Shown: positions 1,886-56,129, counted from the stretch's first letter. The stretch is 64,000 bases of DNA from an uncultured Candidatus Saccharibacteria bacterium (GCA_964574655.1 CAZNOH010000001.1:400247-464246), one strand, 5' to 3'. The notes: generated by a model from the letters alone, not told the origin. A program made the numbers and translations.

Positions 1886-3769
1886 ATGAAGGATCAAAAC
1901 ACACAAACAAAAAAAGAGATAAATGTCGATGTTCTGTCGACCATAGATGAGTATTTAGGAAAAATGGATTGGCGAGTTTCAGCAAACGCAAATCAAGGCT
2001 ATTCTTTAGGCGGTATGATTTTAAATACTGCAGGAAAGGTAGTGGCTAATTATTGGTTGCATAAAATTTATCCAAAAGAAGTTGGTGAAGCTCATATCCA
2101 TGGTGATTATCATATCCATGATTTGGATATGTTCACTGGTTATTGCGCTGGATGGAGCATTAGGCAACTTTTGGAAGAAGGCTTTAATGGAGTTTCTGGC
2201 AAGGTTGAATCTGGGCCAGCAAAGCATCTAGAAACTGCTTTGGGACAAATGGTAAATTTTTTAGGAACATTGCAAAATGAGTGGGCTGGCGCGCAAGCTT
2301 TTTCATCTTTTGACACTTATTTGGCCCCCTTTGTTAAGATTGATAATTTGGATTATGAAAGAGTAAAGCAGTGTGTCCAGCAATTTGTTTTTAATCTTAA
2401 TGTTCCATCTCGTTGGGGAACACAAACTCCTTTTACGAATGTTACTTTAGATTGGGTTTGCCCAGAAGATATGAGAACAAGGAAGCCGGTAATTGGCGGC
2501 AAGGTCGTTGATTTTACTTATGGAGATTGCCAAAAAGAAATGGATATTGTTAATAAAGCTTTTATTGAGACAATGATTACAGGCGATAATAAGAGCAGAA
2601 TTTTTACTTTTCCAATTCCAACATACAATATTACAAAAGATTTTGATTGGGAAAATGAAAATGTGAAATTATTATTTGAAATGACAGCTAAATATGGTAC
2701 TCCTTATTTTCAGAATTTTTTAAATTCAAGCTTGAAGCCTTCTGATGTTAGAAGTATGTGCTGTAGATTACAATTAGACTTGCGTGAATTAAAAGCAAAA
2801 GGCGGAGGCTTGTTTGGCTCTGCAGAAATGACAGGCAGTGTTGGAGTAGTAACTATTAATTTGCCAAGAATTGGCTATTTAGCTAAAACAAAAGAGGAAT
2901 TTTTACAAAGATTAGAAAAATTAATGAGCTTGGCTAAAACTTCTCTAGAAATGAAAAGAAGAGTAATAGAGGAAAACATGGATAAGGGCTTGTTGCCTTA
3001 TACAAAACGCTATCTTGGATCATTGCATAATCATTTTTCGACAATTGGCGTTAATGGATCTAATGAAGCTTGTTTGAATTTTTTGGATAAAGATATTTCT
3101 CATCCAGAATCCAAGCAATTCATTCTTGATGTTTTGGATTTTATGAGAAAGAAATTAGCTGATTATCAAGAAGAGACAAATAATTTCTATAATTTGGAAG
3201 CAACTCCAGCAGAAGGTACAACATATAGATTTGCAAAAGAAGATCAAAAGAGATATCCAGATATTATTCAGGCAGGAACAAAAGAAGCCCCTTATTATAC
3301 AAATTCAACTCATTTGCCTGTCAGCTATACTGATAATCCAATGGAGGCATTAGACCATCAAGATGATTTACAAACTAGATACACCGGCGGAACAGTTTTG
3401 CATATGTTTTTAGGCGAAAGAATTATGAATTGGAAAGTTTGCCGAGATTTAGTTAAGAGAATCGCTGAGAATTATAGACTGCCTTATTTTACAATGACTC
3501 CCACGTTTAGTATTTGTCCAACGCATGGTTATTTGAATGGCGAGCAAAAGAATTGCCCAATTTGTGAGAAAGAATGTGAAGTATGGTCAAGAGTGATGGG
3601 ATATTTTAGGCCTGTCTCACAATGGAATAAGGGCAAACAAAGTGAATATGCTGAACGCAAAGAATATGAAATTAAGAATTTAAAATATGAAAATAGCCGG
3701 GTTTCAGAAATTAAGCCTATTAGAATACCCAGACAAGATTTGTGCAATAGTGTTTCTGCAGGGATGTAA
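1886..3769 (+). CDS. nrdD: Anaerobic ribonucleoside-triphosphate reductase (class III), NrdD
   Basis: 627 aa. C-terminal Zn-ribbon CPTHGY..CPIC and glycyl-radical motif RVMGYFRPV..WNKGKQSEY. The read-through tail overlaps nrdG. Confidence 0.9.
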   Translation: MKDQNTQTKKEINVDVLSTIDEYLGKMDWRVSANANQGYSLGGMILNTAGKVVANYWLHKIYPKEVGEAHIHGDYHIHDLDMFTGYCAGWSIRQLLEEGFNGVSGKVESGPAKHLETALGQMVNFLGTLQNEWAGAQAFSSFDTYLAPFVKIDNLDYERVKQCVQQFVFNLNVPSRWGTQTPFTNVTLDWVCPEDMRTRKPVIGGKVVDFTYGDCQKEMDIVNKAFIETMITGDNKSRIFTFPIPTYNITKDFDWENENVKLLFEMTAKYGTPYFQNFLNSSLKPSDVRSMCCRLQLDLRELKAKGGGLFGSAEMTGSVGVVTINLPRIGYLAKTKEEFLQRLEKLMSLAKTSLEMKRRVIEENMDKGLLPYTKRYLGSLHNHFSTIGVNGSNEACLNFLDKDISHPESKQFILDVLDFMRKKLADYQEETNNFYNLEATPAEGTTYRFAKEDQKRYPDIIQAGTKEAPYYTNSTHLPVSYTDNPMEALDHQDDLQTRYTGGTVLHMFLGERIMNWKVCRDLVKRIAENYRLPYFTMTPTFSICPTHGYLNGEQKNCPICEKECEVWSRVMGYFRPVSQWNKGKQSEYAERKEYEIKNLKYENSRVSEIKPIRIPRQDLCNSVSAGM

Positions 3770-4412
3770 TTTTAGATGTCCATTTTGCCATAATCCAGAA
3801 TTGGTCGGTGATCCTCCTTCGTCCTGCGGGACTTCGGAGGACGAGGTCTTCGGTTATTTGGTCAAGAAGAAGAAAATGCTAGATGGTGTTTGTATTACTG
3901 GCGGAGAGCCGACTATTTGGAAAGACTTGCCGGAATTTATTGTTGAGTTAAAAAAGCTTGGTTATTTTGTTAAGCTTGATACAAATGGATCTAATCCTGC
4001 GATGCTTGAAAAGCTTTATAAAAATAAATTGCTTGATTATGTTGCAATGGATTTGAAGGCTCCGTGGACGAGATATTCGGAAATTGGAATATTCGGAGCT
4101 TCGGAGCTTCGGAGCTTCGGAGCTTCGGAGCTTATGAAATTGGTTGAGAATTGTCGGAAGTCTTTTGAATTGATTCAAAATTCAGGAGTAGATCATGAAT
4201 TCAGGACAACTGTTTTTCCACAAAAGCATGTTGAAAATGATTTTATGGAAATGGCAAGTTATTTGAAATCTGGTGAAAAATATTATTTGCAGAATATTAG
4301 ATATATCAAGAATTTAGATCCTGCTTTAGATCAGAGCAAAAAGATTAATGTTAGCTTGGTTGTAAAAAATTTAAAGCAAAAATATCCTGATTTAATTGTT
4401 GAAGAAAGATGA
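3687..4412 (+). CDS. nrdG: Anaerobic RNR activating enzyme (radical SAM), NrdG, with in-frame repeat insertions
   Basis: N-terminal SLLEYPDKICAIVFLQGCNFRCPFCHNP (CxxxCxxC radical SAM). GGEP motif. Confidence 0.8.
   Translation: MKIAGFQKLSLLEYPDKICAIVFLQGCNFRCPFCHNPELVGDPPSSCGTSEDEVFGYLVKKKKMLDGVCITGGEPTIWKDLPEFIVELKKLGYFVKLDTNGSNPAMLEKLYKNKLLDYVAMDLKAPWTRYSEIGIFGASELRSFGASELMKLVENCRKSFELIQNSGVDHEFRTTVFPQKHVENDFMEMASYLKSGEKYYLQNIRYIKNLDPALDQSKKINVSLVVKNLKQKYPDLIVEER
3812..3848. repeat. GC-rich CTTCGG hairpin mini-element, copy A, in-frame inside nrdG
   Basis: atcctccttcgtcctgcgggacttcggaggacgagg. Stem TCCTCC/GGAGGA. It shares the loop and the motif with the copies at 6897 and 11058. Confidence 0.6.
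4092..4131. repeat. 8-bp tandem repeat (TTCGGAGC)x5 inside the nrdG coding sequence
   Basis: ttcggagc x5, translated in-frame as FGASELRSFGASEL. Confidence 0.85.
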
Positions 4413-5149: not shown

Positions 5150-5272
5150 CCTTTTTCCTCCGTTTTTGCCCCGCAACCTTTTTGGGGGCCTCTCTTTGAG
5201 AGACATAGAACGAGTATATGATAGAATTAAATAATTGTCAATCGTTTTTGTTAATTAAAAATCATACATACT

Positions 5273-6547
5273 ATGAAAAAGAAGTTACTATTGATATTAG
5301 GTTTTTTGTTGTTATTGCCTAATTTTGGCTATTCTAAGGCACAAGATTGGGGTGTTGTTTATAATTTGACAGAGTCTGATTTAGCTGTTTCTCAGCAGAT
5401 TTTTAATAGATCAAAGAGAATTGAAATTAAAATACCAGCAAATTTAATAGATGCTGAACAAATAAACATTAAATTTAAAAAGCTTGCAAAAGATGAGCAT
5501 AAAATTCCAGAAGGATATGAAGCAATCAGCAATATTTATCGCTATGAAATTTCTAATGAGACTGATGATTTTGTTTTATTAGGAAAAGTAAAAATTTTAT
5601 TAAAATATAATTCAAAGACATTTAATAAAAAAGGCGCATTTTATTGGGATTTTGATGAAAATAGATGGAATGAATTAAGAAGTAAAATTAATGATAGCAA
5701 GGATTTGGCGATTATAAAAACTGATATTGAAGATTTAGATATTGTTGTTTTAGAAAAAAGCAGCAAATCAAGCATTATTGAACCAACTAAGAAAGCTGAT
5801 GTTTCTGATCCAGATGTTTATTCTCTGGGAGGAGTATTGATGGATATAAAATCTGGCAAGATAATGTACTGCAAAGATTGTGATCGAAAGTTGACTTTAG
5901 CTTCAATGACAAAAATGATGACAGCTAATATTGTTCTGGAGTCTGGTTTAGATTTAAATAAAATTTATACTTATCAGCCACGGGATGATGCTGAGGGCCA
6001 GAGTGTTTGGCTGACAGCAGGTGATAGAATAAAAGTTGAAGACTTGCTTTATACGTCTTTAGTAAAATCAGCCAATAATGCAACTAACGCTTTGGCTCAT
6101 GCAACAGGAATGAGCGATGCTGAATTCGCTGCTAAAATGAATGAAAAAGCAAAAAAGGTGGGAGCAAATTCATGTTCTTTTTATGAGCCTTCTGGTTTGG
6201 ATTGGCGAAATGCTTGTACTCCTAAAGATTATGCTAAAGTTGCGATTGATGCTTTGAAAAAATTTAAAATCATGCAAGCATCAACAACTAAGGTCTATTC
6301 TTATCAAACTTTGGGAGGCAAAACTATTAGCGTGACTAATACTAATGCTTTGCTGAATAGTAATTTGTATATTTTGGGTGGAAAAACGGGCTATTTGCCA
6401 GAAATTGGCATGAATTTGATGACTAAAGCGCGAGATAAAAACGGGCATGAATTAATCGGAGTTGCTATTGGTTCTGGATCTTATTATGGTGTAACAAATG
6501 ATGTTGAAAAGATGTTGAGATGGGGGTTTAATAATTGGACATGGTGA
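5273..6547 (+). CDS. Serine-type D-Ala-D-Ala carboxypeptidase (S11, PBP5/DacA-like) with an N-terminal extra domain
   Basis: Signal peptide. SxxK (SMTK), SxN (SAN) and KTG (GGKTGY) motifs. Confidence 0.7.
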   Translation: MKKKLLLILGFLLLLPNFGYSKAQDWGVVYNLTESDLAVSQQIFNRSKRIEIKIPANLIDAEQINIKFKKLAKDEHKIPEGYEAISNIYRYEISNETDDFVLLGKVKILLKYNSKTFNKKGAFYWDFDENRWNELRSKINDSKDLAIIKTDIEDLDIVVLEKSSKSSIIEPTKKADVSDPDVYSLGGVLMDIKSGKIMYCKDCDRKLTLASMTKMMTANIVLESGLDLNKIYTYQPRDDAEGQSVWLTAGDRIKVEDLLYTSLVKSANNATNALAHATGMSDAEFAAKMNEKAKKVGANSCSFYEPSGLDWRNACTPKDYAKVAIDALKKFKIMQASTTKVYSYQTLGGKTISVTNTNALLNSNLYILGGKTGYLPEIGMNLMTKARDKNGHELIGVAIGSGSYYGVTNDVEKMLRWGFNNWTW

Positions 6548-7009: not shown

Positions 7010-7384
7010 ATGCAAATTTTTTTAGATTATATTGAATGGTGGTATTCTTATGGTTTAATCAGAATGCTTAAGTATTTAAAAGCATTTATTTTAGTTTTGG
7101 TTGATACTTTCTCTGTAAAAATTTGTTTTTCGACATTATTTGCGCCATGGAAAAGAGATGCTGTTTCAACAGAAGGAATGAGTTTGCAAGAGAGATTTGG
7201 AGTGTGGGGTGGAAATCTGATTGCAAGATTATTTGGTTTTTTTATTAAATTTATAACTTTATTAATATTTTTAATCTGTTTTATAATTTTGCTTTGTTTT
7301 GAAATTGCTATTATAGTTATTTGGTTATTACTTCCAATGTTGCTGGTGGAAGGAATTGTAGTAGGTGTTATGTATTTAAGATAA
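7010..7384 (+). CDS. Hypothetical small membrane protein
   Basis: ORF with hydrophobic helices. No motif. Confidence 0.3.
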   Translation: MQIFLDYIEWWYSYGLIRMLKYLKAFILVLVDTFSVKICFSTLFAPWKRDAVSTEGMSLQERFGVWGGNLIARLFGFFIKFITLLIFLICFIILLCFEIAIIVIWLLLPMLLVEGIVVGVMYLR

Positions 7385-7499
7385 TCGCTAATATTTTGCT
7401 AATGTTTGCGAATTATTTGCAAATAAAGTAAAAAGCCTGGTTGAATAGTAAATTTTATTAGCAAATAATTAGCAAATATTTGCAAATGATTAGCGAAAT
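7385..7499. promoter_or_regulatory. Two phased arrays (4+4) of the TTTGCTAAT/TTAGCAAAT/ATTTGCAAAT motif upstream of the Clp ATPase gene
   Basis: GC(T/A/G)AAT cores at 7388, 7398, 7408, 7419 and 7461, 7472, 7482, 7493 (10-11 bp period). ATTTGCAAAT itself is palindromic. Confidence 0.55.
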
Positions 7500-7514
7500 A
7501 ACAAATGTTTTTTT

Positions 7515-10079
7515 ATGATTACATTTAATACAGGAAAATCAAAAATATTTCGTTATGCAGGATTAGTCAGATTCTTGCGAGTTTTTATTTTTAAGATTTT
7601 GTCTTTTTTTGTTTATTTATTAGGTATTTGTTCTTTTGCCTTTGTAATTTTATATAATTTTTCAAGTTTATATAATTTGAATTTTAACAGCAGAATGTTG
7701 GGTTTTGCGGTTATCTGCTTGGCTTTTTCTTTGTTCTATTTGTCATTCCATGTTTTTTATGAATCAGGAGTCAGAAATGTAAAGCCATTAATTCCTTTGA
7801 AAGATGCTTTGGCGATTGCAAAAAAAGACGGAAATATTAATTTAGCTGATTTTGTCTCTATCAATTTAGCAATTGCAATATCAAATGCTTTGAAGAAGAG
7901 CAAAAATAAAAAGGATGCGATGATTAATTCTTCTGATCTGCTTTTGGAATTATTGAAAGTGAAATCAATAAAATTTATTGTTAATCGTATTGGTCTAAGT
8001 GTTTTGGATTTAGAAAAATATGTTGAAGAATATGCGTCAGCAAAATCAAAACAATATCTGGATTCACCGCAAACATTGAAAAAAGCTTTAGAGGTTGGCT
8101 ATCTGGAAGGACATGAAATAATAAGTTGCGGTGATATTTTTGTTGTTTTGTCAGCTCTTGATCCTTTGATGAAAAAGATTTTGTTTGATTTAAATTTAAA
8201 GATTGAAGATATTGCGAATATTGTTTATTGGGAAACTTCTTTTTATAAATTTAGAAAAGAGAAGAATTTTGATCCGGATAAAATCAAGAGAAAGGGCGGG
8301 ATTGGTAGAGAGTGGGCATATGGTTATACTAGAGCGTTAAGAACATTTGGTCATGATTTGACTGATGAAATATTAAGAGGCGCGCTTCCTTTTCATATTA
8401 TTGGACATGAAAAAAATATCAATCAGATAGAAGATGTCCTTGTTCGCGCGACACATCATAATGTGATTTTACAAGGCGCTCCTGGCGTTGGTAAAAGAAC
8501 AGTTGTTTTGGGTCTTGCAAAAAGAATTCTGGAAGGTACTGCTTATTCTAGCTTAGCTAATAAGAGATTAATTGAATTAGATGTTGATAGATTGTTAGCT
8601 GGAGCACAAACTCCAGGTGAGATTATTGAAAGATTGGAAGCAGTAATGTCTGATGCTGTTGTTGCAGGCAATATTGTGTTGTTTATTGATAATATTCAGA
8701 AATTATTTGGTAGCGGTGAGGGCAAGGTTGGATCAATTGATGCTTCTCAAGTGTTAGTGCCATTTTTAGAGAATCCAAATTTATATTTTGTATCAACTGC
8801 TAATTCTGACGATTTTCATCAATATATTGAAACAAGATCAGCAGTATCTGATAAGTTTGAAGTTTTGGAGATTACTGAGCCTAATGAAAATGTGACCTTA
8901 AGAATTTTAGAAGATATGGCTCCAAAGCTAGAATCTCAAGGAGGAGTAATAATGAGCTATCCGGCTTTGAAATCCATCTACAAATTAGCTGATCAATTTT
9001 TGTATTCAAAGCCTTTTCCTGAAAAGGCAATTGATTTTTTGAATGAAACAATTGTTTTTGCTTCTGCTTTTGGCAGAGGAACAATTGTTTTGCCAAAACA
9101 CATTGAAACTTTGATGAAGAAAAAAGTTAAGGCGCCGATAGGCGAGGCTGAAGGCGCAGAAAAACAATTGTTATTGCATTTGGAAGACTTTTTGCATAAG
9201 CGTGTTGTTGATCAAGAAGAAGCAATAAGGGTAGTTTCTGATGCTTTGAGGCGTGCAAGATCAGGCGTTGAAGCAGGAAATAAACCAGTGGGTAGTTTCT
9301 TATTTTTAGGACCAACTGGAGTTGGAAAGACTGAAACCACAAAAGCACTTGCAGAAGCTTATTTTGGTTCGGAGAAATCAATGATACGTTTTGATATGTC
9401 AGAATATCAGGATCAAGCCTCTGTTTATCGTTTGATTGGTCCTCCTCCTGGAACGACTGAGGCGAAAGCTGGCGGTGAATTAACAAATGCAATTAAAGAT
9501 AATCCTTTTACTGTTGTTTTGTTTGACGAAGTCGAAAAAGCGCACAAAGATATTTTGAATTTATTTTTACAAATGTTGGACGAGGGCTGGTTGACTGATT
9601 CTTTAGGAAGAAAAGTAAAGTTTAATAATGCCATGATTATTGCAACATCAAATGCTGGAGCTAACTTGATTCAAGATGGTATAAGACAACATCTCGATCC
9701 AGTAGTTTTAAAAGAGAGATTAATAAATTATTTACAGGCCGAGGGCATATTTAGGCCGGAATTTTTGAATAGATTCACTTCTGTCGTTTATTTCAAGCCT
9801 TTGGAAAAAGAGCATGTTTTACAAATTACGAAAATGTTATTAGGTAAACTAGTCAAAAGATTAGAACAAGAAAAGGGAATTTATTTGAGAATTGATGAGC
9901 CAGGAATTGAAAGATTGGCTGAGCTTGGTTTTGATCCTTTGATGGGTGCAAGGCCTATCATGAGGACAATTCAAAACTATGTTGAAAATATTTTGGCAAA
10001 GAAGATGTTAACTGGTGAAGTTAAAAGAGGAAGTCAGTTTGTGATTACTTTAGTTGATATCAATAATACAAAACAATAA
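7515..10079 (+). CDS. Membrane-anchored Clp/Hsp100-family double-AAA+ ATPase (ClpA/ClpC-like, no ClpB M-domain)
   Basis: N-terminal TM helices. D1 Walker A GAPGVGKRT with a degenerate Walker B LFIDN. D2 Walker A GPTGVGKTE and Walker B FDEVEKAH. Confidence 0.75.
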   Translation: MITFNTGKSKIFRYAGLVRFLRVFIFKILSFFVYLLGICSFAFVILYNFSSLYNLNFNSRMLGFAVICLAFSLFYLSFHVFYESGVRNVKPLIPLKDALAIAKKDGNINLADFVSINLAIAISNALKKSKNKKDAMINSSDLLLELLKVKSIKFIVNRIGLSVLDLEKYVEEYASAKSKQYLDSPQTLKKALEVGYLEGHEIISCGDIFVVLSALDPLMKKILFDLNLKIEDIANIVYWETSFYKFRKEKNFDPDKIKRKGGIGREWAYGYTRALRTFGHDLTDEILRGALPFHIIGHEKNINQIEDVLVRATHHNVILQGAPGVGKRTVVLGLAKRILEGTAYSSLANKRLIELDVDRLLAGAQTPGEIIERLEAVMSDAVVAGNIVLFIDNIQKLFGSGEGKVGSIDASQVLVPFLENPNLYFVSTANSDDFHQYIETRSAVSDKFEVLEITEPNENVTLRILEDMAPKLESQGGVIMSYPALKSIYKLADQFLYSKPFPEKAIDFLNETIVFASAFGRGTIVLPKHIETLMKKKVKAPIGEAEGAEKQLLLHLEDFLHKRVVDQEEAIRVVSDALRRARSGVEAGNKPVGSFLFLGPTGVGKTETTKALAEAYFGSEKSMIRFDMSEYQDQASVYRLIGPPPGTTEAKAGGELTNAIKDNPFTVVLFDEVEKAHKDILNLFLQMLDEGWLTDSLGRKVKFNNAMIIATSNAGANLIQDGIRQHLDPVVLKERLINYLQAEGIFRPEFLNRFTSVVYFKPLEKEHVLQITKMLLGKLVKRLEQEKGIYLRIDEPGIERLAELGFDPLMGARPIMRTIQNYVENILAKKMLTGEVKRGSQFVITLVDINNTKQ

Positions 10080-10600: not shown

Positions 10601-10660
10601 TGCGGAATTGCTAAAATTGTTATAATGTTTTATATTAAAAATGAAGTTAAGTAAAATTAT

Positions 10661-11025
10661 ATGGATAAACAAACTAAAAAAGAATTTACAACGCTCAAAA
10701 AAGGATTTACTACACTCAATAAAGAATTTACAGATCTGAAGAAAGTAATAAAAAATGGATTTAAGACGCAAGATGTTAAGTTTAATAATTTGCATGATAG
10801 AATTGATGATCTAGCTATGATGGTAAAAAAAAGTTTGATCAGAATAGTAAAGAGCATGAACAAAATAGAATAGAACATGAGCAAAATAGAAGAGAGCATG
10901 AAGAGATTTTAAACGAATTGGCAGAAGTTGATTTGAAATTAGGGGAAAAAGCAATGTGTGGTGATTATATTGATTTAGAGAGTCGTGTTGATGTTATCGA
11001 AAGAAAATTATTTCCGATTAGATAG
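10661..11025 (+). pseudogene. Small coiled-coil protein interrupted by a frameshift at an A8 homopolymer (10825-10832)
   Basis: Frame 1 MDKQ..MMVKK terminates at 10873. The +2 frame continues as KFDQNSKEHEQNRIEHEQNRREHEEILNELAEVDLKLGEKAMCGDYIDLESRVDVIERKLFPIR to about 11025. An A9 tract would fuse the two frames. Confidence 0.4.
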
Positions 11026-11057
11026 GCGTAATTTCCAGACAACAGTAAAAGCCTCCC

Positions 11058-11085
11058 ATCCGCCTTCGCTGTTGCTTCGGCGGAT
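11058..11085. repeat. GC-rich CTTCGG hairpin mini-element, copy C (diverged)
   Basis: ATCCGCC-ttcgctgttgcttc-GGCGGAT. Confidence 0.5.
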
Positions 11086-11095
11086 ACTTTGCATA

Positions 11096-19423: not shown

Positions 19424-19534
19424 AACTACAGATTTTACACAGATTTTTTACAGATTATTACAAATAACACAGATGAGATATCTGTGTTATTTGTGTAGAA
19501 TTTGTATTTAATTTGTGTAAAATTTGTAGTTTTC

Positions 19535-28942: not shown

Positions 28943-28985
28943 AGCGCTGATTTTACGCTGATTTCGAACGCTGATATACGCTGAT
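28943..28985 (+). repeat. ACGCTGAT x4 array, copy 1
   Basis: agcgctgatttt acgctgatttcga acgctgatat acgctgat. Located 3 nt after the M23 stop. Confidence 0.9.
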
Positions 28986-29030
28986 ATAAAATTTGTTAAA
29001 ATTTGACGATTCTAGCGTTTTATATATCTA

Positions 29031-29058
29031 ACCAGGTATCAATTCACCTGGTTTTTGT
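29031..29058 (+). terminator. Rho-independent terminator after the M23 peptidase gene
   Basis: ACCAGGT-atcaattc-ACCTGGT followed by TTTTTGTTG. Confidence 0.6.
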
Positions 29059-29631
29059 TGAGTTAGTTATAAGTTATCAGTTAAAAGTTATATATTTATA
29101 ATATTTATCAAAGACACTACTCTTTTCTTTTTTATTTTTTGAAGAAAGGCGAGATTGAACTTGGTTTAGGAACTTTGTAGAGAGTGAATCATTTATTTAT
29201 TTTTTAATTAATATAATAAATAAGTGAGAAGGCACGGAGGGATGGCACAGTGGTGGTTGGTTTGATTAATGATATATTAATTATTAAATAGGATATAATA
29301 ATTAATATAAAAAATAAAATAGGCTAAGGGGAGTCGTTCAGGATTGAATACGTCGCAAAAGATATATTGTGCGACGTGATGTCTCTTTGCGCTTTCTTTT
29401 GAACTGACTAACTTTTAACAAATTTTAATTAATCTTTTATATTATTTATTTAATTATTTTCATAAATAATTCGGAAATTCTTGGTGGCACTTCGTCTTCT
29501 GGTTGCCTGACTGTTGATTATTTTGTTAATTAATTATAAAAATAAATAATTAATTCGGGCTTCCCTGTTCTCTGTTGACTTTTTGGTCAAAAATGAAGCA
29601 AAGATTGGTTGAGTAGATTTATTAATGTATA

Positions 29632-29657
29632 AGAGCTATATAATGCTCTTTTTTTTG
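29632..29657 (+). terminator. Weak hairpin plus T8 (possible plus-strand terminator of an unannotated transcript)
   Basis: AGAGC-tatataat-GCTCT followed by tttttttt. Confidence 0.35.
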
Positions 29658-29659
29658 TT

Positions 29660-29689
29660 ATCAAAAAACGCTAGATTGTTTCTAGCGTT
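29660..29689 (-). terminator. Rho-independent terminator of the L,D-transpeptidase gene
   Basis: AACGCTAGA-ttgtt-TCTAGCGTT preceded by an A-run (a T-run on the minus strand). Confidence 0.55.
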
Positions 29690-29709
29690 CTAAAAGTTTT
29701 TATAATTCC

Positions 29710-31169: not shown

Positions 31170-31214
31170 AAGCGCTGATTATATGCTGATTTCCAACGCT
31201 GATTTGACGCTGAA
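31170..31214 (+). repeat. ACGCTGAT x4 array, copy 2
   Basis: aagcgctgattat atgctgatttcca acgctgatttg acgctgaa. It starts 3 nt from the ldt start codon. Confidence 0.85.
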
Positions 31215-31592: not shown

Positions 31593-31636
31593 AATTTAAG
31601 TTCTTAAAGTTGTAAAGTTTTTAAAGTTATAAAGTC

Positions 31637-34258: not shown

Positions 34259-34302
34259 AGCGCTGATTTGACGCTGATTACTAACGCTGATCTAACGCTG
34301 AT
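34259..34302 (+). repeat. ACGCTGAT x4 array, copy 3
   Basis: agcgctgatttg acgctgattacta acgctgatcta acgctgat. It starts 3 nt after the rpmA stop. Confidence 0.9.
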
Positions 34303-35979: not shown

Positions 35980-36023
35980 AGCGCTGATCTAACGCTGATT
36001 TTTAACGCTGATCTGACGCTGAT
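35980..36023 (+). repeat. ACGCTGAT x4 array, copy 4
   Basis: agcgctgatcta acgctgattttta acgctgatctg acgctgat. 10 nt upstream of the pyrG start codon. Confidence 0.9.
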
Positions 36024-44617: not shown

Positions 44618-44647
44618 TATGTTTGTTTTGTTATTTTGCTAATTGTG

Positions 44648-44676
44648 TTGACAAAAATTGCTAATTATTATATATT
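44648..44676 (+). promoter_or_regulatory. Sigma70-like promoter TTGACA-N17-TATATT with two TTGCTAAT motifs
   Basis: ttgaca aaaattgctaattatta tatatt, upstream of the HAD gene. Confidence 0.45.
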
Positions 44677-46849: not shown

Positions 46850-47197
46850 ATGAATACATTTTGGGATGAGTTTGCTAAGTATGCGATTGCAAACATGGAT
46901 GGACTTTTAGCTGCTTTGTCTCTTTTTGTACTCTTGTTGGGACTTTTTGTTGTAGTAGGTTTGATTGCAAGATCTGAAAGTAGGAAAAAAATTCGTGAAC
47001 AAGAGTTCAATTTACGTGAACGACAGATGAAACTAGATGAGACGAAGGCTAGCAATGTTGCAAAACTTGTTGCAAAAATGGATTCTTTAGAAAGAAGATT
47101 GTCTGATGCTAGGCTGAGTCAAGAGATTATTAATGCAAGCGAACGAGCTTTAGTGGTTGCTACTGAAGTGATTGAAGAAGAACAGCGACAACGTTAA
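46850..47197 (+). CDS. Hypothetical membrane-anchored coiled-coil protein with a strong SD
   Basis: GAAAGGAGGAGAGAG precedes the ATG. One TM, then a charged helix. Confidence 0.35.
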   Translation: MNTFWDEFAKYAIANMDGLLAALSLFVLLLGLFVVVGLIARSESRKKIREQEFNLRERQMKLDETKASNVAKLVAKMDSLERRLSDARLSQEIINASERALVVATEVIEEEQRQR

Positions 47198-47255
47198 AAA
47201 ATGTACTTTGATCTATCAATTCGTTGATAGATTTTTTTTATCTTTTTTTATGAAA

Positions 47256-47953
47256 CCCCTCCCATGGGGAGGGTAGAAGATTTCTACCTTGGCCATGCCA
47301 AGGGTAGCGTGGTTTGAGGTAAGTTCTTTGTTTTTAATGATTTAAGTTGTTTAAGATCAAGTGTTCCTTCATTATCTTCGTCAATATTTATTACATTTCT
47401 AATTAACTCTCGCATTGCATTATCTCCATATTTTTTAGCATAATATCCGTAGCTTGAAAAAGGATTTTCTTTTAGATCTTCAAATCTGCTTACTTCTCTG
47501 TGTTTTAGTAAATTGCCGTTGATATATCCGATAATTTGCCAGTACATTTTTTCGTCTTTAATAAAAAATGTTTTTGTTGTTTGCCAGAAGTTTTTGCATT
47601 TGACTCGGTAAATTTTTTTATATTCTCTAGATATTCCGCTATGTAATATGTTCCTTAGTTGAGACATTGTTTTTCCTGATTTTAAGTAAAGCATAATATG
47701 GAAATGATTCATTGAGATACTGAATGATTGAAAAGGAACGTACAAGACTTCTTTGATTTGTTTGAATTTATTTAGAACAATTTGTTTCTGTTCAGATTCC
47801 TTAAAATACGGATAATGAAGGAAAGTTGAGGTTGTGAGGAAGAAAAAAGAGTTATCTGGCCAAATTATTTTTTGATTTGGCGGAAGTGGTTTTTGCATTG
47901 CTTTTTTGAACTTAACGACCCCTGCCATGGGTAGGGTAGAAGCTAAAGATCTT
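47256..47953 (-). mobile_element. RAYT/IS200-like (Y1 HUH) transposase gene flanked by REP-like GC-rich hairpins
   Basis: Left end: CCCCTCCCATGGGGAGGG, GGTAGAA-gat-TTCTACC and CCTTGG-ccatg-CCAAGG. Right end: CCCCTGCCATGGGTAGGG plus AAGATCTT. Both ends share the block CCATGGG(G/T)AGGGTAGAAG. Confidence 0.55.
47284..47928 (-). CDS. IS200/IS605-family Y1 transposase, REP-associated (RAYT-like)
   Basis: HuH motif NHFHIML. Catalytic-Tyr region GYINGNLLKH resembles IS200 YIHNNPVKAG. Confidence 0.5.
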   Translation of the reverse strand: MAGVVKFKKAMQKPLPPNQKIIWPDNSFFFLTTSTFLHYPYFKESEQKQIVLNKFKQIKEVLYVPFQSFSISMNHFHIMLYLKSGKTMSQLRNILHSGISREYKKIYRVKCKNFWQTTKTFFIKDEKMYWQIIGYINGNLLKHREVSRFEDLKENPFSSYGYYAKKYGDNAMRELIRNVINIDEDNEGTLDLKQLKSLKTKNLPQTTLPLAWPR

Positions 47954-50808: not shown

Positions 50809-50938
50809 TGTTTGATTGCTAATTTGTTCATAATTTCTACCTGCCTTTAGGCAAGGGGATTAAAAATTTTGCAATCCAAAATTTTTAATGAACTTTAGTT
50901 CTGGAGTCGACTAAAGCTAAAGCATTACGACCCTTCGG

Positions 50939-52111
50939 CTAAAGCCGAGTAGAAACTAGCTCAAGCATCTGATTAACTCTGTTCTTCCAGTTTTCATTTT
51001 GAACTGATTCTTTTCTTTTGATTTCTAGCTCTCTATTATTCTCCTTCAAAGCTTGATTAATTTTTTCGTTGAATTCCTCCTTTGTTTTGGCGGTATAGAT
51101 AAGTTCCTGAAATTTTTCAATTCCTGCAATTTGAGTGGTGACAATTGGCTTTCCACAAGCTAGATATTCATACAATTTTAAAGGATTCATTGATTTTGTA
51201 TACTTATCAATTTTGTGAGGAATAATGCTGACATCAAATTCATTCATATAATAAGGAAGTTCTAAATATGATTTTCGGCCAAGAAAATGCACATTGTCTT
51301 GTGATTTTAATTCATTGACTTCAGTATTTTTCCAGACTGGACCAATTAAGACAATCGATTTTTCAGGATTTTTTAGGCTTAAATATTTTATTAATTCTAT
51401 ATCAAGCCTTTTTTCAATTGTGCCGACATAGCCAATGATTGGATGTCCGACGTGAATTATTTTCTTGTCTGCTTTTTTTTCAAAATGATTAATGTCTACG
51501 CCATTCGGTATCCATGTTTTGTTTTTGGTATCTGGAAAAAGATTTAATAAATCTTTTGAAACTGTAAAGATGTAATCTGCTTTTTTGGAAATTATATCGT
51601 AATTATTTTTAAGTCTTTCTGTATAATTAACAAAATTAGGATGTTCCATCCAATTATCAACAGTATCAAAAATATTTATTGTTTTAGATACTGAAAAATT
51701 TTTGAAATAATCGAAATAACCAGAAAACATTGGAAAATATGACCAAATTAAAATTGGATATTTTTCTTTAAAAATGTTTTTCTTTTTGATTATTTTATTT
51801 ATTTTTTTATAGACTTTTTGTTCACTAAATATCGAGTCAATCGTTGAGTAAGCGTAAATTTTGTCGCTGTATTCTACTAATTTTGAAGTTAAGTCCATGT
51901 AGATTCTTTTGCCTCCATTTGATTTTAGAATTGATTGCGTGTAAATTCGCAAAGCTCTTTTTTTTGTGTAGGGTAAAAAATCAACAGCAAATATTTTGTT
52001 GATTTGATCCTTCTCCGATAAATTGTGCAAAATGTGATAATTTCTATTAACAATGCCAGATTTCCATTCTCGGAATTCTGACATGTTGAACATTATTACA
52101 TTATATTTCAT
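50939..52111 (-). CDS. GT1/GT4-like glycosyltransferase
   Basis: The C-terminal half, YEYLACGKPIVTT, fits a GT-B nucleotide-sugar-binding domain. Confidence 0.6.
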   Translation of the reverse strand: MKYNVIMFNMSEFREWKSGIVNRNYHILHNLSEKDQINKIFAVDFLPYTKKRALRIYTQSILKSNGGKRIYMDLTSKLVEYSDKIYAYSTIDSIFSEQKVYKKINKIIKKKNIFKEKYPILIWSYFPMFSGYFDYFKNFSVSKTINIFDTVDNWMEHPNFVNYTERLKNNYDIISKKADYIFTVSKDLLNLFPDTKNKTWIPNGVDINHFEKKADKKIIHVGHPIIGYVGTIEKRLDIELIKYLSLKNPEKSIVLIGPVWKNTEVNELKSQDNVHFLGRKSYLELPYYMNEFDVSIIPHKIDKYTKSMNPLKLYEYLACGKPIVTTQIAGIEKFQELIYTAKTKEEFNEKINQALKENNRELEIKRKESVQNENWKNRVNQMLELVSTRL

Positions 52112-52115
52112 AAAT

Positions 52116-52156
52116 ATCGCTAATCATTTGCTAATTTTTGCAAATTATTTGCTAAT
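52116..52156. promoter_or_regulatory. Phased array of four TTTGCTAAT/TTTGCAAAT motifs filling the NHL-GT1 intergenic region
   Basis: atcgctaat, tttgctaat, tttgcaaat, tttgctaat at about 10-bp period. Same family and same ATCGCTAAT leading unit as the array at 7385. Confidence 0.55.
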
Positions 52157-52163
52157 AAAAATA

Positions 52164-56084: not shown

Positions 56085-56129
56085 AAGCGCTGATTTTACG
56101 CTGATTTCTAACGCTGATATAACGCTGAG
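56085..56129 (+). repeat. ACGCTGAT x4 array, copy 5
   Basis: aagcgctgatttt acgctgatttcta acgctgatata acgctgag. It ends 18 nt before the GT2 start codon. Confidence 0.9.

Follow-up and report, generated by a model that had tools for sequence, protein, structure and literature searches.

The DNA analysed in this study, referred to as the window, was a stretch of 64,000 nucleotides from an uncultured Candidatus Saccharibacteria bacterium (GCA_964574655.1 CAZNOH010000001.1:400247-464246), and the feature in question was a set of short phased repeats in front of a Clp/Hsp100-type gene. This gene (7515-10079) encoded a double-AAA+ protein with the domains AAA_2, ClpB_D2-small, and AAA and with a hydrophobic stretch at the N-terminus. 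It was separated from the open reading frame (ORF) of a conserved 124-aa membrane protein (7010-7384) by a 130-bp spacer that carried eight TYGCNAAT units. Four of the cores started at 7385, 7396, 7406, and 7417 on the + strand, and the other four occupied 7457-7464, 7468-7475, 7478-7485, and 7489-7496 on the - strand. An earlier reading of the window made from the sequence alone (the sequence-only reading) had described eight phased copies in two groups of four; these were real, and the starts given there corresponded to the GC cores of the same units. Each group formed a 40-bp element, termed F1, which consisted of TCGCTAAT followed by three TTGCNAAT units with a spacing of 11-10-11 bp. The analysis of the window and its relatives showed that the repeats in front of clp were copies of a dispersed, conserved four-unit element, one family in a system of intergenic octamer arrays in this Patescibacteria lineage, and that they did not constitute a Clp-specific operator.

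Array A (7385..7424, + strand) read TCGCTAAT-ATT-TTGCTAAT-GT-TTGCGAAT-TAT-TTGCAAAT, and its unit 1 abutted the TAA stop codon (7382-7384) of the membrane-protein ORF. Array B (7457..7496, - strand) was an inverted copy of A with the same spacing and the same first unit, TCGCTAAT on the - strand, the end of which lay 18 nt ahead of the ATG of the Clp-type gene. Array B matched the reverse complement of array A at about 34 of 40 positions by hand count, so that the 115 bp spanning both arrays formed an imperfect palindrome, and as RNA these 115 bp were predicted to fold into a 45-bp imperfect hairpin (-41.5 kcal/mol, z = -6.7). The 32 bp between the arrays (7425..7456) contained AAAGTAAAAAG, similar to the GTAAAA repeats of a related contig (L117), and a weak -35-like hexamer, TTGAAT. 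The possible promoter in this gap, TTGAAT-N17-AATAAT, matched at 9 of 12 positions, and the region contained two sites of this quality, versus 2.1 expected from shuffles. The position upstream of a Clp/Hsp100-type gene was reminiscent of CtsR and CIRCE (controlling inverted repeat of chaperone expression) sites, and CtsR boxes likewise consist of heptads repeated directly every 10 bp. The sequence-only reading was correct, however, in stating that the motif was neither of these. No CtsR box (RGTCAAA-NAN-RGTCAAA) was found in 7385-7514 at three or fewer mismatches, with 17 matches in the whole window versus 17.3 expected, and the CIRCE/HrcA consensus (TTAGCACTC-N9-GAGTGCTAA) had no match in the window at the same threshold.

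A third F1 array (array C, 52117..52156, + strand) filled the 52-bp spacer (52112-52163) between the NHL and GT1 genes, leaving 5 nt between unit 1 and the start codon of GT1 (52111, - strand) and 7 nt between unit 4 and the stop codon of NHL. The architecture was identical to that of A and B, and array C was 91% complementary to array B over 47 nt, which confirmed the copies reported at this site in the sequence-only reading. The same reading had named a genome-wide background frequency of the motif in AT-rich intergenic DNA, without phasing or positional bias, as a refutation. The single 8-mer TTGCWAAT was indeed at background in the window (32 copies versus 24.6 expected), whereas its clustering went far beyond that of shuffled sequence: five clusters of at least three heptamers were found, and 200 shuffles gave 0.015 on average and never more than one. 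A further pair assigned to the motif family consisted of two TTGCTAAT copies on the + strand (44636..44665, starting at 44636 and 44658), 22 bp apart around the -35 element of the promoter of a HAD gene (TTGACA at 44648-44653, N17, TATATT). Both copies were present at the claimed spacing, but pairs of this kind were expected by chance in the shuffle comparison, and the orthologous promoter in the related contig L143 kept TTGACA-N17-TATATT and lacked the pair. The HAD pair was probably a chance pair outside the F1 family.

The window contained a second family of the same general build. F3 consisted of four KCGCTGAT units (GCGCTGAT followed by three ACGCTGAT) with a spacing of 11-13-11 bp, and all six window copies lay on the + strand. 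Among these copies the units were 96-100% identical, whereas the spacers were only 40-65% identical. The neighbours were genes for an M23 peptidase, NifU and an L,D-transpeptidase (Ldt), L27 (rpmA), PyrG and RplI, and two GT2 glycosyltransferases. The array at 28944..28985, with a spacing of 11-13-10, began 3 nt past the M23 peptidase stop codon, ahead of an intrinsic terminator, and the array at 34260..34302 lay 3 nt past the rpmA stop codon, followed by a terminator and situated between convergent genes, so that two of the six copies occupied the position between stop codon and intrinsic terminator. The copy at 31172..31214 filled the 53-bp spacer between nifU and ldt with unit 1 placed 4 nt from the L,D-transpeptidase start. 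At 35981..36023, unit 1 was 11 nt from the pyrG start codon, and at 63010..63052 it was separated by 5 nt from the TTG with which a GT2 gene (62033-63004, - strand) starts. The array at 56087..56129 was also upstream of a GT2 gene, with unit 4 facing the gene and separated by 18 nt from its ATG (56148).

F1 was also present in another organism. When metagenomes were scanned for exact patterns, 12 matches emerged, of which eight were TTGCTAATGTG satellites of a different organism and four were true F1 arrays, all from the sample Ga0172379 (contigs L122, L124, L126, and L129). Over 40-48 bp these arrays were 90-96% identical to those of the window, while the contigs otherwise shared with the window only one 79-bp repeat of another type, termed F2, at 81% identity. 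The orthologue of GT1 in this sample (L144) was 77% identical to the window protein, which showed that the arrays were far better conserved than coding DNA. In the seven F1 arrays of the two organisms, seven of the eight unit positions were invariant and the fifth base alone varied, while the spacers were 67-73% identical. All canonical F1 and F3 arrays measured had an 11-bp spacing within their unit pairs. In Ga0172379, the array between dprA and topA (L129) extended to the ATG, another overlapped the stop codon of a ROK kinase gene, and a third began 6 nt past the stop codon of a gene for an Ig-like/FG-GAP protein, ahead of an intrinsic terminator. The fourth (L124) was an inverted pair before a type IV pilin-PilD operon, the degenerate arm of which was 18 nt from the ATG. 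When genome contigs were scanned with a loose three-unit pattern, all matches were perfect tandem repeats of 10-11 bp in unrelated taxa; viral sequences yielded nothing but iteron-like repeats with a uniform 11-bp unit and a single unrelated match, and an exact look-up of the window Clp protein had no match. Several of the phage contigs from IMG/VR (L145-L154) carried three to five copies of a uniform 11-bp CGCTGATnnnn repeat, which was iteron-like and not homologous to F3. In the loose pattern scan, a separate arrangement, CTG-TTGCAAATGG x3 followed by GAAAAT.CATTTGCAAC, recurred on several contigs from unrelated Bacteroidales metagenome-assembled genomes (L001, L004, L026, L042, L044, L093, and L104).

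The arrays invited the explanation given in the sequence-only reading, which had proposed a regulon operator for a dimeric or tetrameric regulator. In this explanation, such a factor bound to F1 would co-regulate clp, GT1, dprA, the pilin gene, and others, either as a general regulon or as a competence and pilus regulon, and a paralogous regulator would act through F3 as its operator. F1 was found 0-18 nt upstream of the starts of clp, GT1, dprA (L129), and the type IV pilin-PilD operon (L124), and in both inverted pairs the head of the gene-proximal arm was exactly 18 nt from the ATG. The conservation of units beside variable spacers was also as expected of binding sites. Pho boxes consist of 7-8-bp direct repeats separated by three or four AT-rich bases with an 11-bp period, and two tandem boxes contain four repeats. 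The geometry of the arrays was similar to these operators of Escherichia coli PhoB and Bacillus subtilis PhoP, and to OmpR/PhoB-type boxes in general, which would imply head-to-tail dimers on one face of the helix, although the likeness was judged from geometry and general knowledge. In Pho boxes, however, position and orientation are fixed with respect to the -10 element of the regulated promoter, and the boxes serve a functional regulon, whereas the arrays here followed the strand, were often located away from promoters, and had unrelated neighbours.

Comparison of orthologous sites weighed against an operator. The cluster of genes for a BON protein, the 124-aa ORF, Clp, and an M54 peptidase was syntenic in the relatives, but none of the closest orthologue loci read (L117, L132, and L118/L119) carried an F1 array upstream of clp. 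The spacer was 48 bp with GTAAAA repeats in L117 (Clp 91% identical), 147 bp (5256-5402) with AGAAATT repeats and an inverted AATTTCT in L132 (90%), 19 bp in L118 (69%), and 51 bp in L119 (70%). The conservation upstream of clp orthologues which the sequence-only reading had proposed to check was absent in all four. L132 and L138 probably represented one organism, as they came from a common sample. Since L138 carried F1 and F3 elsewhere, the clp site was empty in a lineage that owned the array system.

Around pyrG, where three relatives were compared (L135, L138, and L139; PyrG 85-91% identical), many arrays persisted. At the site between nifU and ldt, F3 was present in the window, in L135, and in L138, where a hairpin was situated between the unit pairs, while the L139 contig ended earlier. 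After the L27 stop codon, F3 was found in the window, L138, and L139 and was missing in L135; after the M23 peptidase stop codon, it was found in the window and L138, the contigs of L135 and L139 ending earlier. Upstream of pyrG, the F3 array of the window was replaced by F1 in L138 and by F1 in L139, split by a hairpin between the unit pairs, and no array was present in L135. Likewise, the F1 array upstream of GT1 corresponded to a three-unit ATTCGAAAAT array in L140 and L143/L144 and to none in L142. An array at a given spot was thus often maintained while the occupying family changed, and where arrays persisted at orthologous sites, the units were retained and the spacers altered. Hairpins of about 20-36 bp were accommodated exactly between the two unit pairs of arrays. 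The family swaps at the pyrG and GT1 sites were unlike the behaviour of a gene-specific operator. In addition, some arrays followed a stop codon and preceded a terminator, or separated convergent genes, the orientation was fixed relative to the strand and mixed relative to the neighbouring gene, the neighbours of F3 were unrelated housekeeping genes, and no transcription factor gene, for which the sequence-only reading had suggested a search nearby, was found among the window ORFs scanned. Mixed gene orientation, positions away from promoters, unrelated neighbours, and family swapping together spoke against any classical operator, which we consider unlikely, and likewise against a regulon centred on Clp, the envelope, or stress. 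A full OmpR/PhoB-type operator was not supported, given the mixed gene orientation, the copies between stop codons and terminators, the incoherent neighbours, and the lack of a response regulator among the scanned window ORFs, and a competence regulon (dprA, pilin, and clp) met the same objections as any regulon. Of the original proposal, the appearance of a cooperative site was upheld by the invariant units and the 11-bp spacing. The regulon of Clp, glycosyltransferase, and HAD genes was not supported, given the empty clp orthologues and the family swaps, and its envelope or stress character was not borne out, with F3 flanking housekeeping genes, neighbours unrelated, and the HAD site at chance level.

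Strict strand polarity was the most unusual property of the arrays. The G-rich strand of each contig was assigned by the skew at third codon positions (GC3 skew), independently of gene orientation; in the window this skew was +0.42 for + genes and -0.34 for - genes. In all solo F1, F3, and ATTCGAAAAT arrays the sense units were on the G-rich strand, with neighbouring genes in either orientation. The tally comprised the six F3 arrays and array C of the window, the arrays of L122, L126, and L129, three of L143, five of L138, and those of L135, L139, and L140. As counted from the listings, these were about 22 arrays at no fewer than 13 non-orthologous sites (two-sided binomial p ~2e-4). The polarity was uniform on contigs of both orientations, in data that spanned neither origin nor terminus. 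The base composition of the F3 units was balanced, so that the strand bias was not explained by general G/T-richness, whereas the 10:1 strand skew of TTGCTAAT fell within the general skew of G/T words in the window. The position of the arrays was also regular. Unit 1 was always KCGCT[AG]AT, usually with a preceding AA, and in most arrays was 0-12 nt from the start or stop of an ORF, while terminators and probable promoter regions lay on the side of unit 4.

Strand polarity of this kind is the signature of single-strand insertion of IS200/IS605-type elements into the lagging-strand template (PMC6006769, PMC5027513), and the polarity of the arrays fitted this signature. The arrays could then be selfish repeats, non-autonomous elements or single ends spread by an HUH/Y1 transposase of the RAYT (REP-associated tyrosine transposase) type or by another transposase, with the inverted pairs as the mobile unit, as in REPINs or miniature inverted-repeat transposable elements. 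The inverted pairs with their outward unit-1 ends resembled REPINs (PMC3116915), presence and absence varied among close relatives, and the clp spacer of the window without its two 40-bp arrays would be 50 bp, close to the 48 bp of L117. A RAYT-like Y1 transposase gene was located in the window at 47284-47928 (- strand; NF047646, E = 1.4e-11, below the curated cutoff; Pfam Y1_Tnp weak), flanked by hairpin and GTAGAAG elements. On each side (47246-47275 and 47921-47950) these consisted of CCCCTSCCATGGGKAGGG hairpins followed by TAGAAG. Elements made of a hairpin and TWAGAA also occurred at 50840-50957 and in L133, L119, L135, L138, and L139, and in L138 and L139 they were inserted exactly between array unit pairs. 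As the cognate repeat of the RAYT-like gene, however, the arrays were rejected, its flanks being GC-rich CCCCTSCCATGGGKAGGGTAGAAG hairpins with no F1 or F3. The arrays had no hairpin, which Y1 enzymes require, showed neither a target-site duplication nor a constant target sequence, and formed pairs far more rarely than solo arrays. Moreover, units stayed intact while spacers diverged, both among copies and at orthologous sites, which implied selection at each locus instead of recent copying. Transposition by an HUH enzyme was disfavoured as the cause of the polarity because the arrays lacked hairpins and their units were under selection at each locus, and a selfish origin is in our judgement improbable.

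The repetitive extragenic palindrome (REP), the bacterial interspersed mosaic element (BIME), and the REPIN nevertheless resembled the arrays in being dispersed, lineage-specific intergenic families of 35-45 bp, often after stop codons or between cistrons, single or in inverted pairs, and with rapid turnover. They differ from the arrays, which were four direct repeats without a hairpin, in forming hairpins with a conserved GTAG, and the decay pattern of REP copies is unlike the conserved units and free spacers seen here.

As RNA in untranslated regions (UTRs), the arrays could serve as an unstructured leader or enhance translation, could signal processing or stability, or could pair as sense and antisense copies of 3'-UTR and 5'-UTR, with the long hairpin at clp. 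The arrays were probably transcribed, as they lay between a probable promoter region and an ATG, or after a stop codon and before a terminator. The energy of the A-B hairpin and the near absence of Shine-Dalgarno sequences from the window genes also spoke for such a role. However, the arrays occurred about equally often in both orientations relative to transcription, so that a single RNA motif cannot be the functional form, and the strand polarity and the constant 11-bp spacing pointed to DNA. Rfam and tRNA scans of the window gave no match, and the solo arrays had no significant fold as RNA. We regard an RNA-level element as quite improbable. A substitute for the Shine-Dalgarno sequence was ruled out, as the genes linked to arrays were not special in a genome that hardly used Shine-Dalgarno sequences at all. 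In the window, these sequences were nearly absent from 56 ORF starts, and clear cases were limited to 33428, 46850, and the HAD gene, where AAGGAGGAGAGA preceded the start codon (ATG, 44726); the leaders at 46850 and of the HAD gene were similar to each other.

Slippage in AT-rich intergenic DNA can also yield short tandem repeats, and the arrays might be a functionless by-product of it. Many further intergenic spacers of the window held lineage-specific short-period repeats, and other repeats occupied the same spots in relatives, such as AGAAATT (L132) and GTAAAA (L117) before clp and ACTTTA, TTTTACA, or CAATTAA before nifU. The repeats upstream of nifU differed by lineage (AACTTTA at 31593-31636 of the window, TTTTACA at 5006-5045 of L135, and CAATTAA at 4763-4814 of L138), and the AACTTTA units were similar to the "epsilon" enhancer of T7 gene 10, TTAACTTTA. 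Slippage, however, cannot account for the recurrence of one four-unit element, its distinct first unit included, at loci that are unlinked and in an organism with a 77%-identical GT1, and it leaves the conserved units beside free spacers and the uniform strand orientation unexplained. This explanation was already largely refuted and appears very improbable.

The features of the arrays pointed instead to a protein that reads double-stranded DNA, as indicated by invariant 8-mers with free spacers, a constant 11-bp spacing within pairs, and tolerance of insertions between pairs. The reading we tentatively favour, which seems plausible but somewhat short of probable, is that the arrays are bound cooperatively by a protein and play a direction-dependent part at the level of the chromosome. 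An oligomeric, sequence-specific protein would bind them cooperatively, with one subunit on each 8-mer and a head-to-tail dimer on each 11-bp unit pair along a single helix face, and each array would comprise two such unit pairs at a flexible distance. The arrays would then act as a strand-polar "punctuation", with the sense units on the leading strand and unit 1 near the start or stop of an ORF. Direction-dependent machines are among the known causes of such polarity, through selection on Ter, KOPS (FtsK orienting polar sequences), and Chi. The arrays may be read by something that travels in one direction on the chromosome, such as a replication fork, a translocase, or a recombination helicase, or the complex may be tolerated only in the orientation that permits replication forks to pass. 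Array B lay within the last 60 nt before the clp ATG, and in a read-through transcript A and B could form the hairpin; any effect on clp would thus be local and secondary.

Several observations weighed against this role. Nine of the 13 polarity sites belonged to one syntenic 64-kb segment, and the link to replication was tested by only three independent contigs (L122, L126, and L129). The inverted pairs (A/B and L124), the sole cases with an arm in the opposite orientation, broke the polarity rule. Seven arrays were directly upstream of start codons, a position that would also fit an operator or a leader element. Outside the arrays CGCTGAT occurred just once on the + strand and twice on the - strand, unlike KOPS, Chi, and Ter, and we know of no polar signal among these that is built as four helically phased units. 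The several families (F1, F3, and ATTCGAAAAT) would call for more than one reader protein, unless a single reader tolerated them all, and the Pfam scans of the window ORFs found no gene for a DNA-binding protein, a transcription factor, or a response regulator.

Compared with known polar signals, the arrays shared short motifs (8-mers in KOPS) and a possible tie of their orientation to the direction of replication on each chromosome arm with KOPS and SRS (SpoIIIE recognition sequences), the sites of FtsK and SpoIIIE, with Chi of RecBCD and AddAB, and with Ter of Tus and RTP, and their spacing in the window of about one per 10 kb was similar to that of KOPS. Those signals are single sites, two overlapping ones in the case of Ter, and mostly lie inside genes, whereas the arrays were phased, four-unit, intergenic, and of several families, and their putative connection with replication was deduced from the GC3 skew of only a few contigs. 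The over-represented single copies, including those inside genes, that mark the KOPS and Chi type were not seen for CGCTGAT. It is possible, though on the doubtful side, that the arrays represent a new class of replication-oriented chromosomal signals in the Candidate Phyla Radiation (CPR)/Patescibacteria, made of phased four-unit octamers in interchangeable families at ORF ends and read one way by a replisome, DNA translocase, or helicase, with a logic like that of Ter, KOPS, and Chi and a different build.

Other systems were similar in part. Arrays A and B, two blocks of four around a 32-bp core, looked like parC of plasmid R1, in which two blocks of 11-bp repeats flank a promoter and are bound by ParR, and the operator arrays of ribbon-helix-helix proteins (omega and MetJ) and of MraZ are likewise blocks of short repeats with an 11-bp period that are bound cooperatively. 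In contrast to parC and iterons, the arrays were chromosomal, dispersed, and mostly solo, and the two blocks at clp stood in inverted instead of direct orientation; genes for partition, ribbon-helix-helix, or MraZ proteins were lacking nearby. TIGR (tandem interspaced guide RNA) arrays of TIGR-Tas systems, which are common in CPR, are also short-period arrays missed by standard repeat finders, and the CUGA and UGAU of F3 resembled box D and part of box C. In a TIGR array, each unit measures about 36 nt and comprises two spacers and box C/D motifs, and a tas (Nop-domain) gene lies alongside, whereas the arrays here were dispersed and had four 8-bp units with 2-5-nt spacers, and Pfam scans of the window ORFs found no Nop-domain gene. 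Sigma-70 promoters were rejected: TATAAT or TAAAAT sometimes occurred between F3 units 2 and 1, but there was no -35 element, the hexamer was inconsistent, and about half would run antisense into the gene. Sigma-54 promoters, with -24/-12 elements as two GC dinucleotides 11 bp apart, failed on the missing -24 GG and the inconsistent orientation. DNA uptake sequences did not fit units that were almost absent outside arrays, and tiling of primase sites (CTA/CTG every 11 nt) did not fit because the trinucleotide was missing in the GCAAAT, GCGAAT, and TTCGAAT units.

Further repeats of other kinds were noted in the window. F2 (58294-58400), upstream of a type I phosphodiesterase gene, was a palindromic array of TACGAAT, TGCGAAT, and TGCAAAT heptamers with a spacing of 7-11 bp and two inverted arms, and a related array in Ga0172379 (L124, 1546-1620), 81% identical over 79 bp, was located upstream of a surface-protein gene. 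F4 (19428-19527), between convergent AdoHcyase and rhodanese genes, was a long palindromic array of ACAGATTTT units facing ATTTGT units, and the same spot in the 91%-related genome L117 (16936-17012) held an ordinary intrinsic terminator hairpin. The ORF of a radical-SAM (NrdG-like) protein (3687-4412) contained a perfect 8-bp tandem repeat (TTCGGAGC x 5.2) at 4092-4133 and was 26 aa longer than its L117 orthologue. Two blocks of about three copies of 21-bp repeats (10669-10732 and 10836-10902) were located in a stretch of about 500 bp without a long ORF (10601-11095). The region 28986-29709 (about 720 bp) had no ORF of 90 aa or more and contained GC-richer patches and two terminator-like hairpins without an Rfam match; at the equivalent place the relatives had small ORFs or much shorter DNA.

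Literature searches found no described system that unites four-unit 11-bp arrays, interchangeable families, a position at ORF ends, and a uniform leading-strand orientation, although the building blocks are familiar as iteron-like or pho-box-like direct repeats and REP-like intergenic dispersal. The CPR/Patescibacteria have tiny genomes and few recognisable regulators, and to our knowledge almost nothing is known about their cis-acting DNA signals. In practice, phased repeats before a gene in these genomes should not be taken as the operator of that gene unless relatives are compared. A 40-bp element that is nearly identical across about 23% protein divergence and strictly oriented points to an abundant DNA-binding factor, and perhaps to an undescribed direction-dependent chromosomal process.

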